From Oceanobacillus neutriphilus (GTDB lineage: Bacteria > Bacillota > Bacilli > Bacillales > Amphibacillaceae), in the NCBI RefSeq assembly GCF_014645515.1, contig NZ_BMLW01000004.1, forward strand, positions 334,805-358,804: a stretch of 24,000 nt of DNA, in the 5' to 3' direction. Under the pieces are notes generated by a model. That model did no database searches and was not told the origin of the DNA. It saw nothing but the letters and a program-made list of their open reading frames with translations. The first letter of the stretch is position 1; every line of letters begins with the position of its first letter. The position numbers and the translations under genes are program-made. Of the stretch, positions 1,948 to 7,022 are shown one piece after another.

Positions 1948-3441
1948 TTAATTTATTTTTGGATCTAACGCATCCCGCAGGCCGTCGCCTAAAAAGTTAA
2001 AGGCTAAAACCAGCAAAATAATCGCTATCCCCGGAAAAATTGCTAAATATGGTTCGGTTTCTAAATAAGCACTCCCGATACGGAGGACATTCCCCCACTC
2101 TGGAACATGAGGCTCTACGCCAAGTCCCAAAAAGCTTAAACTGCTTGTTGCAATAACCGCCCCGCCGATTGTTAAGGTAGCTTTGACAATCATCGGAGCA
2201 AAAGCATTTGGAATAGCATGCTTCGTCAGAATCTTCCAATCCGATTCTCCCAATGCTTTGGCTGCTTCAATATATTCTAAATTCGATACCATTAAAATAT
2301 TGGCCCGCATCGTTCTTGCATAAATCGGAATCGATCCAATGCTTAGAGCAATGATTAAATTGATCGTACTGGAACCAAATGCTGCGATAATGGCAATTGC
2401 TAATAAAATCCCGGGAATGGCATACAAAGCATCCATCACACGCATAATGACCTGATCGGTAGCTTTATAATAATAGCCTGCCAGTGCCCCTAGCAATCCG
2501 CCAATAATCATTGGAATAATCGTTGTCAATAAACCAATGACTAAGGAAATCCTTGCTCCGAAAATAATTCTGGAAAATACATCACGGCCGAAATTATCCG
2601 TTCCAAATGGATGCACAAAGCTTGGCCCCTGCAGCAGAGAGCTATAATCATTTGCTGTTGCAAAGCTTGTTACAAACGTACCAAAGCTGGTAATGGATAT
2701 TGAAAAGGTAAAGATAACAAATAATAAACCAATCATTGCTGTAAAGCTTTTACCCAGTTTTATCCAGAAAAATCGCCATTTATCAATAACTGACTGGTCT
2801 TTCTTAGATATTTTTAACAGGATACTGTAAGCAAGAATTAAACGGAATATATTTCCTGTTAACGTGGCAATAAATAAAAATACAGCTAGCAGACGCAATG
2901 ATTTTTTCTCTTCTAATGAAGCATCATCCTGCCGATAAAAGAAAATTACCAAGGCAATATCAATAATTAATAATGCCAGTAAAATACCCATAGATAACAT
3001 AAAATGATTAGATACATAGGCTTTAAATAAATTCAACGATGTAACCGCAATAATAAGAAAATCTGTAATGAGCATATAATATGCAAATGTATATTCAATA
3101 GATGTGTTCTTCTTTAAAAGCCGAAAAGCAAATGTTGCTGTAAAAACATTTCCGCAGACTAACGACAGAACCTGTACTGCAGCCAGCATACGTGTACGAT
3201 TCCTGATTTCTCCTGTTTTCAATAAATCTTTACGTAATAAAAGCACGATGAAAAGCTGATATAAGCTGTTTATCAAAAAGATAACGGTAAAAATGCTAAA
3301 AACAGAGTGAAATGTATTCGTGCTAAAATCATAGCTGTTGAACAGAAAAATCAACGTTAATACGATCGATATAACAAATGCAAAGTGACCGTGTTTATAC
3401 AGGTCGGATCGCTTTAAAGACTGTAGATTAGCATAATTCAT
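1948..3441 (-). CDS. ABC transporter permease, DppC/OppC-like, with ~215-residue multi-TM N-terminal extension
   Basis: 497-aa ORF. The C-terminal ~280 aa are a canonical DppC-type core (HPFGTDNFGRDVFSRIIFGARISL, YIEAAKALGESDWKILTKHAIPN, FNFLGDGLRDALDPK). The preceding ~215 aa contain about six hydrophobic helices. GAGAGG RBS 5 nt upstream of the ATG. Confidence 0.85.
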   Translation of the reverse strand: MNYANLQSLKRSDLYKHGHFAFVISIVLTLIFLFNSYDFSTNTFHSVFSIFTVIFLINSLYQLFIVLLLRKDLLKTGEIRNRTRMLAAVQVLSLVCGNVFTATFAFRLLKKNTSIEYTFAYYMLITDFLIIAVTSLNLFKAYVSNHFMLSMGILLALLIIDIALVIFFYRQDDASLEEKKSLRLLAVFLFIATLTGNIFRLILAYSILLKISKKDQSVIDKWRFFWIKLGKSFTAMIGLLFVIFTFSISITSFGTFVTSFATANDYSSLLQGPSFVHPFGTDNFGRDVFSRIIFGARISLVIGLLTTIIPMIIGGLLGALAGYYYKATDQVIMRVMDALYAIPGILLAIAIIAAFGSSTINLIIALSIGSIPIYARTMRANILMVSNLEYIEAAKALGESDWKILTKHAIPNAFAPMIVKATLTIGGAVIATSSLSFLGLGVEPHVPEWGNVLRIGSAYLETEPYLAIFPGIAIILLVLAFNFLGDGLRDALDPKIN

Positions 3442-3458
3442 GTAAGCCTCTCACCCTC

Positions 3459-4871
3459 CTAACTATTCTTCATTTGCGAACGGATACGCGGATTCAGCAT
3501 CGCATAAACAAGATCTACAATTAAATTAACAATCGAAATGGTAATAGCGATATAAACGACTCCCGCAAGAATTGCCGGTGTGTCAGGAATAAATTGTTTA
3601 TCTACAATATAGCTTCCTAAACCGCTGATATTAAAAACTTTTTCCGTTACGGCTGCTCCGCCGAGCATCCCGCCAAACTGCAGCCCAATAACTGTCAAAA
3701 TAGGAATCCAGGCATTTCTCAGCGCATGACCGATAAATGTCTCTCTTCCAGTTAACCCTTTTGCTTTTGCCGTAATCATATAATCCTCATTCATGACCTC
3801 CAGCATAGAGGAACGAGTCATTCTGGCTATCGCTGCAGCGAGCCCTGTTCCTAATACAACAATCGGCATAATCAGCGATAAAAAGTTCCCCGGTGAATAA
3901 CTTGACGGCAGGAGATCTCCCTGAATCGAAAAGGTGAGAATAAAAATAAGACCTTGCCAAAAGCTCGGGATAGATAAGCCGATCAGAGCAATGAACATAA
4001 ACGTATAATCCCAAAATGAATTAACACGTGCTGCCGAAATCATTCCTACCGGCACAGCGATAATAACTGCCAGAATAAGAGAAGAAATCGCTAAAGTAAG
4101 TGTCACTGGAAAACGGTTTGAAATACTATTCATAATCACTTCATTACCTGTATAAGAATGCCCTAAATCAAATGTCAGAATACCGCTTAAAGCATGCCAT
4201 AACTGCACGAAATAAGACTGATCCAGGCCATACTGGATATTAAAAGCATCCCGCTGCGCCTGTGTAGCAGACTCACCCAATATATTGGCAGCCGCATCGG
4301 ATGGCGAAATATACAGAATGGTAAATACAATCACGATAACAGAAATAATTACAAAGAACGTCATAACAACTCGTTCAAATACAAAACGCCTAAAGGCACC
4401 TTGATAAATAAAGTACATACTATAAGCTAAAATCCCCGGAATGAACGTAGGTATGAGGAAACGCTTATCCAGTAAAAGACCGTGGAAAAATTCCATATAA
4501 TTCATCGGCTTTCTTGCCTCTGACCCAAGTTCATTTTCCACCATTGCTTCTGAACGCTTCCTGAGCTGCCGCTGAACAATTTTTTCTTTTTCTGTCTCTT
4601 TTATCGGGCGCCGGAAGTAAGCCTGCTTTTTATCATATTGTTTTTCATAATCGCTTTTTAAAGCTGCATATGCTTTTGATTTCATAAAATTATGCATTTT
4701 TTCCTTAAACAAAGCATCATATGTATTAGACTTTCTTTTACTGAAATAGATACAGAGAGCAATTATATGAATTGGAAACCCGATTAAAAATTGAATCCAT
4801 CTCAGAAAGACCTGACGATGAACAATCAAAAAACCGCGGGATAACACATTCTCGGATATTGAATTTGACAA
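3459..4871 (-). CDS. ABC transporter permease, DppB/OppB-like, with ~150-residue N-terminal extension
   Basis: 470-aa ORF. Canonical DppB-type core from about residue 150 (..ISPSDAAANILGES.., ..ITAKAKGLTGRETFIGHALRNAWIPILTV.., C-terminal ..DLVYAMLNPRIR). TTG start with a GGGAG RBS about 11 nt upstream, so the start is less certain than the frame. Confidence 0.8.
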   Translation of the reverse strand: MSNSISENVLSRGFLIVHRQVFLRWIQFLIGFPIHIIALCIYFSKRKSNTYDALFKEKMHNFMKSKAYAALKSDYEKQYDKKQAYFRRPIKETEKEKIVQRQLRKRSEAMVENELGSEARKPMNYMEFFHGLLLDKRFLIPTFIPGILAYSMYFIYQGAFRRFVFERVVMTFFVIISVIVIVFTILYISPSDAAANILGESATQAQRDAFNIQYGLDQSYFVQLWHALSGILTFDLGHSYTGNEVIMNSISNRFPVTLTLAISSLILAVIIAVPVGMISAARVNSFWDYTFMFIALIGLSIPSFWQGLIFILTFSIQGDLLPSSYSPGNFLSLIMPIVVLGTGLAAAIARMTRSSMLEVMNEDYMITAKAKGLTGRETFIGHALRNAWIPILTVIGLQFGGMLGGAAVTEKVFNISGLGSYIVDKQFIPDTPAILAGVVYIAITISIVNLIVDLVYAMLNPRIRSQMKNS

Positions 4872-4941
4872 TAGGTTTCTTACTCCCTTCTTTAAATCTT
4901 GATAATTCCTACCTTCTTAGTATAGAATATGCTTAATAGGA

Positions 4942-4970
4942 ATTATAGAAAGGAATGATGTAATTGTCAA
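4942..4970 (-). promoter_or_regulatory. Sigma-A-type promoter for the permease/binding-protein operon
   Basis: On the minus strand: TTGACA (4970..4965), 17-nt spacer, TATAAT (4947..4942). Perfect consensus hexamers, about 65-70 nt upstream of the TTG start at 4871. Confidence 0.6.
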
Positions 4971-5249
4971 ATTAATTTTACTGACTTTGAGTGCTCTTCC
5001 GGACAGATTTCATAGAGTAAGAGCTTACTAATTTTAAAGTCTTAAAATTAATTGTAATAACATTACATACTTCCTGTTATATATATGTATATATTCAGAG
5101 TCTTGTTTATTCACCCTGAAAAAAATTATTCACACATATTTTATCGAAATGGCAATTTTTCTTATATTTTTATCAGGCTAAATGTTCTGCTGCTCTGGTG
5201 TACAGGGATATATAATAAATCAAATATTTAATTAAATGGAGATATGATA

Positions 5250-6959
5250 ATGAAAGACATATTAAGCGTTAAAAATTTATCTGTTCATTTTCAGACTACG
5301 GAGCAGAAGGTTCAGTCCGTTAATCAAATTTCTTTCTCCGTGAAAAAAGGAGAAACATTAGGTATTGTCGGCGAGTCCGGCTCCGGAAAAAGCGTTACCG
5401 CAAAAGCAATTATGCAATTACTTCCCGGCCAATCCGCGCACCTTCAAGCGGATACAATAGAATATGAAGGAAATAATCTGGCAAATTATTCTGATCATGC
5501 TATGCAGAAAATTCGCGGTCAGGAAATCAGTATGATATTTCAGGATCCAATGAGCTCCTTTAACCCGACAATGAAAATCGGTAAGCAAATTGATGAAGTA
5601 GTCAGCAAACACCGCAAGCTTTCTGCACATAAAGCAAAAGAAGAAACGATTGAAATGCTGAAGCTGGTCGGAATAACCTCACCCGAAGAACGGTATCATC
5701 AATATCCACATGAATTCTCAGGTGGTATGCTGCAGCGTGCCATGATTGCAATGGCCTTAATCTGCCGGCCGAAGCTATTAATTGCTGATGAACCGACAAC
5801 GGCATTAGATGTGCGTATTCAGGCACAAATTCTGCAATTAATGAAAAATCTGCAGGAGAAATTTGATATGAGCATCATCTTGATTACGCATGATTTTGGG
5901 GTTGTTGCCGGTATGTGCGACCGGATTGTTGTCATGAAAGATGGAAAAATTGTTGAACAAAACGACACAGCATCCATTTTCACACAGCCCGAACACCCCT
6001 ATACACAACGGCTGCTTCATGCCCTGCCACGGATTGATCAAAAAAAGGCGAGCAGATACACGAAATCATTTCAAGATACCGAGTCCTTAATTAACGTAAA
6101 GGATTTGAAAAAGATTTTCCCATTAAAATTAGGCGGACTTGTGCATGCAGTGGATGATATTGACTTCCACATCAGACCTGGTGAAACATTAGGATTAGTA
6201 GGAGAATCCGGCTCTGGAAAATCGACGACCGGACGCCTTATTCTGCAACTGCAGCAGGCAACAGAAGGAGAAATTCTTTTCGGAGGAATGGGAATCCATG
6301 ATTTTAATCGCAAGGAACTCAAAAAGCTCCGCAGAGATGTTCAAATTATTTTCCAGGATCCGCAGGCCTCTTTAAACCCGAGAATGAAGATTCTTGATAT
6401 TATTGGTCAGCCGCTGGACATTCATAAGCTATGTAAAACAAAATCAGAAAGAAGAGCCCGGGTCGAGGAATTATTAGAGCTGGTAGGCCTGACAAAGGAA
6501 CACGCCAACAGGTATCCGCATGAATTCTCAGGAGGACAGCAGCAGCGTATTGGTATCGCCCGGGCGCTGGCTGTAAAACCGAAATTTATTGTTTGTGATG
6601 AACCGCTATCCGCTTTGGACGTTTCCATTCAATCACAGATTGTGGATTTATTAGAGGAATTGCAGGAAAAGCTTGGCCTAACCTATCTATTTATTGCACA
6701 TGACCTGGCAATGGTAAAGCATATATGTGACCGGATTGCAGTCATGTATTCCGGCAAAATTATTGAGGTGGCAGAGAGTGAAGAGCTCTATGAAAATCCA
6801 CTTCACCCATATACCAAATCACTGCTTGATGCTGTACCTATTCCAGATCCGGGGATTGAAGCGAAAAAGATCCGGGAGCATGATATTAAGACAGAAACCT
6901 ATCATTTTGAAAAAAATCGGTTAGAGGAAGTAAGACCGGAGCATTGGATGCTTGTGTAA
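5250..6959 (+). CDS. Fused double-domain ABC transporter ATP-binding protein (DppD/DppF-type, GsiA-like)
   Basis: Two complete nucleotide-binding domains: Walker A GESGSGKS twice, signatures SGGMLQR and SGGQQQR, Walker B LLIADEPTTALD and FIVCDEPLSALD. The oligopeptide-type C-terminal motif (HPYT) follows each domain. The ORF track starts at 5244, but GGAG at 5238-5241 is spaced 8 nt from the ATG at 5250 and only 2 nt from 5244. Confidence 0.9.
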   Translation: MKDILSVKNLSVHFQTTEQKVQSVNQISFSVKKGETLGIVGESGSGKSVTAKAIMQLLPGQSAHLQADTIEYEGNNLANYSDHAMQKIRGQEISMIFQDPMSSFNPTMKIGKQIDEVVSKHRKLSAHKAKEETIEMLKLVGITSPEERYHQYPHEFSGGMLQRAMIAMALICRPKLLIADEPTTALDVRIQAQILQLMKNLQEKFDMSIILITHDFGVVAGMCDRIVVMKDGKIVEQNDTASIFTQPEHPYTQRLLHALPRIDQKKASRYTKSFQDTESLINVKDLKKIFPLKLGGLVHAVDDIDFHIRPGETLGLVGESGSGKSTTGRLILQLQQATEGEILFGGMGIHDFNRKELKKLRRDVQIIFQDPQASLNPRMKILDIIGQPLDIHKLCKTKSERRARVEELLELVGLTKEHANRYPHEFSGGQQQRIGIARALAVKPKFIVCDEPLSALDVSIQSQIVDLLEELQEKLGLTYLFIAHDLAMVKHICDRIAVMYSGKIIEVAESEELYENPLHPYTKSLLDAVPIPDPGIEAKKIREHDIKTETYHFEKNRLEEVRPEHWMLV

Positions 6960-6980
6960 ACACAGATAATACTCAATAGA

Positions 6981-7022
6981 AAATCTCCAGCTATTCATTT
7001 CAGAGTAGCTGGAGATTTTTTT
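6981..7022 (+). terminator. Rho-independent terminator after the ATPase gene
   Basis: AAATCTCCAGCTA (6981-6993) pairs perfectly with TAGCTGGAGATTT (7006-7018). 12-nt loop, followed by a T-run. Confidence 0.8.

Follow-up and report, generated by a model that had tools for sequence, protein, structure and literature searches.

Conserved N-terminal membrane extensions on both permease subunits of a Gis-related Opp/Dpp-type importer in Oceanobacillus neutriphilus

Few bacterial transporters have been studied as thoroughly as the Opp/Dpp importers, for which several cryo-electron microscopy (cryo-EM) structures were reported in 2024-2025. In the systems of Escherichia coli and Mycobacterium tuberculosis, the substrate-binding proteins (SBPs) are non-permuted and the ATPases are two separate chains. 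GisABCD of Staphylococcus aureus, which imports reduced and oxidized glutathione (GSH and GSSG), is encoded by a locus in which gisA and gisBCD-ggt are transcribed divergently (Lensmire et al. 2023, PMC10355420). That study mentions only 'nine predicted transmembrane regions' and leaves the extensions described below unanalysed; later papers mentioning Gis hold nothing further on architecture, and no analysis of either extension was found in the literature searched. Here we describe a related importer locus of Oceanobacillus neutriphilus, located in a 24,000-nucleotide stretch of contig NZ_BMLW01000004.1 (positions 334,805 to 358,804, forward strand; hereafter the window). It encodes two permeases, B (GisB/DppB-like) and C (GisC/DppC-like), a permuted SBP and a fused double ATPase, and both permeases begin with a long extension ahead of the core. 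The kind of transporter is known; neither Pfam nor NCBIfam has a name for the extensions, which have no structural relative. We read the two subunits as the membrane parts of a Gis-type importer of peptides or glutathione-like compounds with genuine, family-defining accessory domains, and give this overall reading an even chance of being right.

By sequence, the window importer belongs to one family with the importer of Staphylococcus simiae that corresponds to S. aureus GisABCD, a kinship missed at first pass. The S. simiae Gis locus has the layout of the window, with a divergent fused ATPase followed by B, C and a lipoprotein SBP, and identities to the window proteins are 48% for the ATPase, 55.5% for the C core and 42% for B overall. 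Its SBP is of the same permuted type, collinear with that of the window over residues 7-584 at 44% identity; the name 'RGD-containing lipoprotein' is given to homologues that share its 90%-identity cluster. The S. simiae B extension repeats the architecture of the window extension (24% identity, E 5e-5). The C protein of S. simiae has 390 residues, and its 110-residue extension corresponds to the second half of the window extension (33% identity; BLASTP E 2e-9, hidden Markov model (HMM) E 2.5e-12). GisC of Staphylococcus thus contains one three-helix unit, whereas the 497-residue C protein of the window contains the unit in duplicate.

Other features of described glutathione systems are shared in part. 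The ggt gene, which lies in the S. aureus gis operon, is not linked to the window cassette: no gene with a PF01019 (ggt) domain was found beside it, and the two ggt genes of the genome are on other contigs. Since there is no linked ggt, the Oceanobacillus substrate is assigned by homology only. E. coli GsiABCD supplied the top NCBIfam models for the ATPase and the C core, GsiA (itself a fused double ATPase) and GsiD respectively, while the E. coli Gsi permeases lack extensions (the GsiC and GsiD models have 303-306 positions). The scores of the Gsi models for the ATPase, the C core and B were all below the equivalog cut-offs. The E. coli Gsi genes also form a single co-directional operon (PMC10355420), unlike the divergent cassette described here.

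Behind the extensions, both permeases have recognizable Opp/Dpp cores, which Pfam and NCBIfam placed at residues ~161-465 of B and ~213-497 of C. PF19300 matched B at residues 162-261 (E 1.8e-13) and PF00528 at residues 272-464 (E 9.5e-39), with Opp2B, GsiC and NikB as the top-scoring NCBIfam models and GsiC in second place. In C, PF00528 matched residues 314-496 (E 2.4e-35) and the GsiD model residues 213-497. The fused ATPase contains two PF00005 and two PF08352 domains. PF00528 in both subunits and PF19300 in B are the domains of an Opp/Dpp (PepT-family) importer, and the partners are those of this class as well, namely an oligo_HPY ATPase and a family-5 SBP (PF00496) in which the domain order is permuted. 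The canonical subunit of ~300 residues, with six transmembrane (TM) helices and a short N-terminal tail, fits neither protein (497 and 470 residues).

The E. coli and M. tuberculosis DppBC and OppBC permeases share homologous type I importer cores with the window proteins (phmmer E 1e-36 to 1e-60), are 287-339 residues long and lack a counterpart of either extension. Solved homologues (PDB 8z1v, 8z21, 8wd9 and 8j5q) aligned only from query residue 224-261 of C and 163-171 of B onward; E. coli DppC (8z1v_B), for example, aligned with C residues 224-496. The nearest solved structures to B were E. coli DppB, E. coli OppB and M. tuberculosis DppB. When the full-length B model was searched with Foldseek, target-normalised TM-scores reached 0.78-0.85 over ~300-330 columns, which is the core alone. 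The same genome encodes 12 further DppC paralogues, each of 283-341 residues (as called or open reading frames). These 12 additional permeases of canonical length make up a large Opp/Dpp complement for one organism.

The extensions are genuine parts of the two proteins, as a first-pass annotation made from the sequence alone had proposed. Each shares one reading frame with its core, a promoter and Shine-Dalgarno sites precede the long starts, and both extensions are conserved among relatives. The ratio of nonsynonymous to synonymous substitution rates (dN/dS) against congeneric orthologues was 0.11 in the extension of C and 0.20 in that of B, compared with 0.02 for the cores (0.024 for the B core), which indicates purifying selection on both extensions even as they diverge 5-8 times faster than the cores. 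The TTG at position 4871 is the earliest start codon past the in-frame stop of the B frame and lies 71 nt downstream of a sigma-70-type promoter, and the N-terminus of B is conserved among relatives from residue ~7 onward. The stop codon of B is separated from the ATG of C (position 3441) by 17 nt, which leaves no space for an extra gene. The observations that the first pass had said would count against it did not materialize, as no internal start explains the cores, every orthologue has the extension and no known domain matches. Internal starts or a fusion with an upstream gene were excluded by the positions of the ribosome-binding sites and promoter, a survey of upstream genes and the dN/dS values.

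The C extension was described at first pass as ~215 residues with about six hydrophobic helices, and this description was borne out by both hydropathy and structure prediction. Family-averaged hydropathy has six peaks, near residues 28, 57, 97, 127, 160 and 194. An AlphaFold2 (AF2) model of the module, built from a 41-sequence alignment, reached a mean predicted local distance difference test (pLDDT) score of 87.7 and a predicted TM-score (pTM) of 0.78. Its six helices span residues 13-36, 46-75, 81-96 continued by 99-109, 115-139, 144-170 and 179-195 continued by 198-211, so that helix 3 is interrupted precisely at Gly97-Asn98 and helix 6 at Gly196-Asn197. Several polar residues are conserved within the predicted helices (Gln62, Gln90, Asn98, Gln/Asp127, Asn137, Asp161 and Asn197), and Lys140 is invariant.

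An internal 3+3 duplication, suspected earlier from motifs common to helices 3 and 6, is now supported by profile comparison. The two halves were aligned by hhalign over 97-100 columns with a probability of 96.9%, an E-value of 1.6e-10 and a score of 58.7, and the two motifs were paired exactly. The Lys-rich leaders ('K-x-S-x-E-Y') and the helix ends ('N-x-x-(D/K)') of the two repeats were matched up as well. Hydropathy-preserving local shuffles scored 14.4 +/- 3.5 (n = 60, maximum 25.3), which places the observed score at a z of ~12; other TM regions of the C protein scored 8-16 and a reversed half 15.5. These comparisons strongly support the view that the C module arose when a three-helix unit was duplicated in tandem.

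No relative of the module was found outside the family; the first pass, too, had failed to recognize any named domain in it. Pfam and NCBIfam scans gave no match in residues 1-215 of C or residues 1-160 of B, and a Pfam scan of the extensions alone at E<=10 gave nothing better than E 9.7. The C-module profile had 0 matches at E<=10 among PDB sequences, and the best Foldseek match of its AF2 model to PDB folds had an E-value of 1.4, with TM-scores of at most 0.29. The top Foldseek matches, 7-TM rhodopsins, were rejected as fold relatives; their TM-scores near 0.25 are noise. Aquaporin/MIP, SWEET/PnuC-like and other known 3+3 six-TM folds were not matched by Pfam, PDB profile or Foldseek.

Charge distribution and natural variants bear on how the C module sits in the membrane. 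The mean number of Lys plus Arg residues (K+R) per segment is 3.0 in the N-terminal tail, 0.7, 4.6, 3.05, 1.05 and 2.9 in the five successive interhelical loops, and 3.0 at the C-terminal end. Both repeats therefore have one common charge pattern, as parallel repeats should have and inverted ones should not. A topology with six spanning helices would put 11.6 K+R inside and 6.7 outside, and one in which helices 3 and 6 re-enter as hairpins from the cytoplasm would put 16.5 inside and 1.8 outside. Half-module variants of GisC (390-391 residues, unit 2 only) were observed in S. simiae (L048:4044-5216) and in a groundwater metagenome (L136:5001-6176). In these variants three helices precede core TM1, and the N-terminal tails contain KKR in Staphylococcus GisC and KKKK in the metagenomic protein, whose gene starts 4 nt after the B stop codon. 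Because Lys-rich tails are unlikely to be exported and core TM1 must start inside, each three-helix unit should cross the membrane an even number of times, with helices 3 and 6 as the probable re-entrant elements. We infer from these patterns that each unit would comprise two spanning helices and a re-entrant Gly-Asn hairpin entering from the cytoplasmic side. Full and half modules alike would then leave the core with its N-terminus inside.

The identical charge pattern of the repeats and the Lys-rich tails of the three-helix variants make an inverted-repeat arrangement of six spanning helices less likely; rather than a re-entrant tip, the Gly-Asn break may be a simple kink in helices 3 and 6. 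The first pass had argued that even numbers of added helices (six in C and two in B) preserve core topology; this argument is weakened by the three-helix variants and the shared charge pattern. In a tree of permease cores, the metagenomic half form was nested among full-length genes (Shimodaira-Hasegawa-like approximate likelihood ratio test (SH-aLRT) support 93), which points to loss of the first unit. The Staphylococcus half form was placed on a long branch within a basal polytomy.

Alignments and AF2 likewise agreed with the earlier division of the B extension into a hydrophobic helix (TM-A), a Lys/Glu-rich segment and a second hydrophobic segment (TM-B). In the AF2 model, TM-A is covered by helices 21-30 and 32-48, and the Lys/Glu-rich domain consists of helices 50-63, 66-85, 92-117 and 125-134 (pLDDT 77-90). 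TM-B is a coil at residues 140-146 and a helix at 147-157, followed by a short turn into core TM1 (helix 159-188); in Staphylococcus, TM-B is an ordinary hydrophobic span. A further suggestion, that TM-B is itself a duplicated DppB TM1, was not upheld: its hhalign score of 13.7 falls within the range of shuffled sequences (8.8 +/- 2.3, maximum 17.4), and PF19300 misses the extension. The N-terminal tail of B is net positive (family mean K+R 4.8 versus 1.8 for Asp plus Glu (D+E)), and residues 61-120 are net neutral (K+R 11.3, D+E 11.5). Given this positive tail, the cytoplasmic start of core TM1 in solved homologues and the hairpin that TM-B makes on TM1, the simplest arrangement has the N-terminus inside and the helical domain outside. 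On this basis the helical domain is somewhat more probably extracytoplasmic than cytoplasmic.

Both extensions, the divergent fused double ATPase and the permuted SBP of ~600 residues make up one cassette conserved across Bacilli. A search with the C extension returned 24 protein clusters of 488-505 residues from Oceanobacillus, Amphibacillus, Gracilibacillus, Streptohalobacillus and Ureibacillus, the closest named matches being from O. sojae (92-94% identity). Whole-genome searches found the C module in 25 of 246 genomes of the host family (11 of 57 genera), in 18 of 401 genomes of an order sample representing at least 7 families, and in 32 of 401 genomes of a class sample after one spurious match was removed. 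A pattern scan of species-representative genomes gave 275 confirmed loci with the module and added Virgibacillus, Viridibacillus, Neobacillus, Sporosarcina, Psychrobacillus, Paenibacillus, Kurthia, Planomicrobium and Lederbergia. Matches always lay within an open frame of about 483-537 residues. The gene upstream of C was, wherever readable, a B-type permease of 445-514 residues that aligned through the extension of the window protein (all 26 earlier loci in which B could be read, and 79 of 80 named loci, both genes being readable in 78). The full cassette of divergent ATPase, B, C and ~600-residue SBP recurred in Gracilibacillus, Ureibacillus, Staphylococcus and the groundwater metagenome. 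In the core tree, the extension-bearing permeases formed one clade (SH-aLRT 100) on a long branch apart from the canonical paralogues of the same genome.

The module was confined to these permeases. An exhaustive HMM search covering 1.84 billion representative proteins gave 71 matches, which were family members, fragments at contig ends and unrelated weak matches; none was free-standing or in another architecture. One candidate for a free-standing module, a protein of 128-129 residues matching helices 1-3 in one genome (L050:4020-4406, E 2.4e-6), is quinol-oxidase subunit-IV-like and encoded beside cox genes, and was judged a hydrophobic false positive. A second candidate (P0090) was rejected as an unrelated repetitive protein.

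The SBP encoded next to the permeases is consistent with a circular permutation. Its residues 63-168 matched OppA model positions 410-515 and residues 267-597 matched the front of SBP_bac_5, an order of match coordinates that departs from the usual one. Identity between the Oceanobacillus SBP and those of distant genera is 60-66%, and the SBP is better conserved than the permease extensions. That the extended permeases go together with this SBP had been proposed at first pass, and in the class sample the 32 of 401 genomes with a collinear full-length SBP match were the same 32 that have the C module. The two genes were adjacent in the loci whose coordinates were compared.

The SBP gene of the metagenomic cassette faces a convergent gene for an M17 leucyl aminopeptidase (L136:8051-9550), a neighbour missing from the window. 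M17 enzymes can serve as Cys-Gly dipeptidases, so this gene hints weakly at a glutathione-type substrate.

The directly supported features of the extensions are their existence, conservation, internal repeat, co-inheritance and lack of known relatives, and our picture of topology, sidedness and function is inferred. The extensions would broaden the transmembrane assembly as an accessory scaffold. The B extension would present an extracytoplasmic helical domain, with TM-B hairpinned onto core TM1, and this domain may aid docking or retention of the permuted SBP, much as MalF acts with maltose-binding protein. A subunit of a type I importer, MalF has additional membrane helices at its N-terminus and docks its binding protein through the large extracytoplasmic P2 loop between TM3 and TM4. 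The comparison is one of function only, since the P2 fold differs from the extensions; no sequence or fold similarity between MalF and the extensions was detected, and Foldseek aligned the cores alone. A role in docking or retention, the likeliest of those considered, is a tentative proposal by analogy, to which we give somewhat less than an even chance.

Several observations weigh against the view of the extensions as accessory domains of a Gis-type importer that hold the SBP. The ggt gene is absent beside the cassette both here and in three other genera. Co-occurrence of the SBP and the C module in one clade amounts to a single evolutionary event and is no demonstration of functional coupling. 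The conserved polar residues inside the C-module helices exceed the needs of a passive scaffold. In B, the Lys-rich stretch right behind TM-A is compatible with a cytoplasmic domain, the hydrophobicity of TM-A and TM-B is merely marginal, and TM-B is not one continuous helix in the AF2 model.

The alternative that survives best reverses the sidedness of B, and we regard it as unlikely. With the N-terminus of B outside, the helical domain would contact the fused ATPase from the cytoplasm as a regulatory module, for example in trans-inhibition or coupling, TM-B would be interfacial and the C module would act as a membrane sensor. It would account for the Lys/Arg cluster with which the charged domain of ~90 residues opens directly after TM-A, for the AF2 rendering of TM-B as a Pro-rich coil and an 11-residue helix, short of a full span, and for an ATPase that is an unusual single fused polypeptide. 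However, the N-terminal tail of B carries a net charge of +3, which disfavours its export, TM-B of Staphylococcus is a normal hydrophobic span and the very short turn between TM-B and TM1 fits a transmembrane hairpin.

Rather less probable is that the extensions are generic membrane anchors or assembly aids that serve insertion, stability or oligomerisation and offer no specific partner surface. Evolution 5-8 times faster than that of the cores would suit such a role, as would the loss of the first repeat at least once within the full-length clade. Yet the 12 other DppC paralogues of the same genome manage without such an aid, and the invariant motifs and strict linkage to the permuted SBP indicate a specific role.

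We find it a little harder still to credit the C module with an autonomous function, in which its polar network and paired Gly-Asn tips would bind an ion, lipid or second ligand, or give it a pathway, at a site that gates or couples to peptide import. Gln62, Gln90, Asn98, Gln/Asp127, Asn137, Lys140 and Asn197 are invariant or nearly so, AF2 predicts a confident bundle without a known fold relative, and dN/dS is 0.11. A module with its own activity sits poorly with its absence as a free-standing protein, or on any other protein, among 1.84 billion representatives, and with the dispensability of half of it in two lineages, one of them a working glutathione importer. An annotation artefact (internal true starts, fusion with an upstream gene or frameshifts) deserves almost no credence despite an internal Met122 in B with a possible GAGG 10 nt upstream, since ~275 species keep the extensions in frame, with invariant residues and dN/dS values of 0.11-0.20, the C core has neither Met nor Val close to its beginning, the promoter and ribosome-binding site are placed at the long starts, and the B-C gap is 17 nt.

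The features of the locus are collected in Table 1. The divergent intergenic region between B and the ATPase gene (4872-5243) is 372 bp long, is AT-rich and contains the promoter of the B operon. A strong intrinsic terminator at 6978-7021 on the forward strand, with a 19-bp stem and a T-run, ends the ATPase gene ahead of a DeoR/sgc-type operon.

Table 1. Coordinates of the importer genes, their expression signals and the permease extensions, numbered from the first letter of the window.
Feature	Position	Strand	Basis or remark
GisB/DppB-like permease gene (B), 470 aa, TTG start	3459..4871	(-)	PF19300 and PF00528 matches
GisC/DppC-like permease gene (C), 497 aa, ATG start	1948..3441	(-)	PF00528, GsiD model
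Partner lipoprotein SBP gene, family 5, circularly permuted, GisD-like, 600 aa	118..1920	(-)	Order of Pfam/NCBIfam matches
Fused double ATPase gene, GisA/GsiA-like, 571 aa, divergent	5244..6959	(+)	Two ABC_tran and two oligo_HPY
Sigma-70-type promoter of the B-C-SBP operon (TTGACA, 17 nt, TATAAT)	4942..4970	(-)	12/12 consensus matches
Ribosome-binding site GAAGGGAG, 11 nt 5' of the B-gene TTG	4883..4890	(-)	Sequence reading
C-gene ribosome-binding region (AGGAGGG, then GAGAGG), overlapping the B stop codon	3447..3460	(-)	Sequence reading
C extension, six-helix module, residues 1-215	2797..3441	(-)	Hydropathy, AF2
Repeat unit 1, residues ~10-111, helices 1-3	3109..3414	(-)	hhalign
Repeat unit 2, residues ~112-210, helices 4-6	2812..3108	(-)	hhalign; unit retained in half-module variants
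Gly97-Asn98, break in helix 3	3148..3153	(-)	Asn98 100% conserved, 41 sequences
Gly196-Asn197, break in helix 6	2851..2856	(-)	Both residues 100% conserved, 41 sequences
B extension, residues 1-160	4392..4871	(-)	In all family members examined; AF2 pLDDT 69-90
TM-A, first hydrophobic helix, residues ~27-45	4737..4793	(-)	Gly31 and Pro33 >=90% conserved
Lys/Glu-rich helical domain, residues ~46-137 (~90 aa)	4461..4736	(-)	Lys82, Phe86 and Phe129 >=90% conserved
TM-B, Pro-rich hydrophobic segment, residues ~138-157, FIPG motif	4401..4460	(-)	Phe138, Pro145, Gly146 and Tyr150 >=90% conserved

The recent Opp/Dpp cryo-EM structures show nothing resembling these extensions. The family to which they belong comprises hundreds of Bacilli species and includes GisABCD, through which S. 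aureus uses host glutathione as a sulfur source. In each permease of that importer, some 110-160 residues are therefore membrane domain that has yet to be characterised. With boundaries, repeat and half-module variants now defined, structural biology has concrete constructs and mutants to work with, and a new domain-family entry can be drawn up. Key positions are the invariant Asn98, Asn137, Lys140 and Gly196-Asn197 of C, together with Gly31, Phe86 and Pro145-Gly146 of B, each at least 90% conserved. In a bolder form, which we consider improbable, the three-helix Gly-Asn unit would be a new membrane fold, in which two spanning helices are joined by a re-entrant hairpin with an invariant Asn at its tip, and would form a specific intramembrane polar site; together with the extracytoplasmic domain of B, this site would serve as an obligatory docking and gating device for permuted SBPs. 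If that were true, it would be a mode of coupling between SBP and transporter unseen in any solved ABC (ATP-binding cassette) importer, and it would operate in the glutathione importer of S. aureus.

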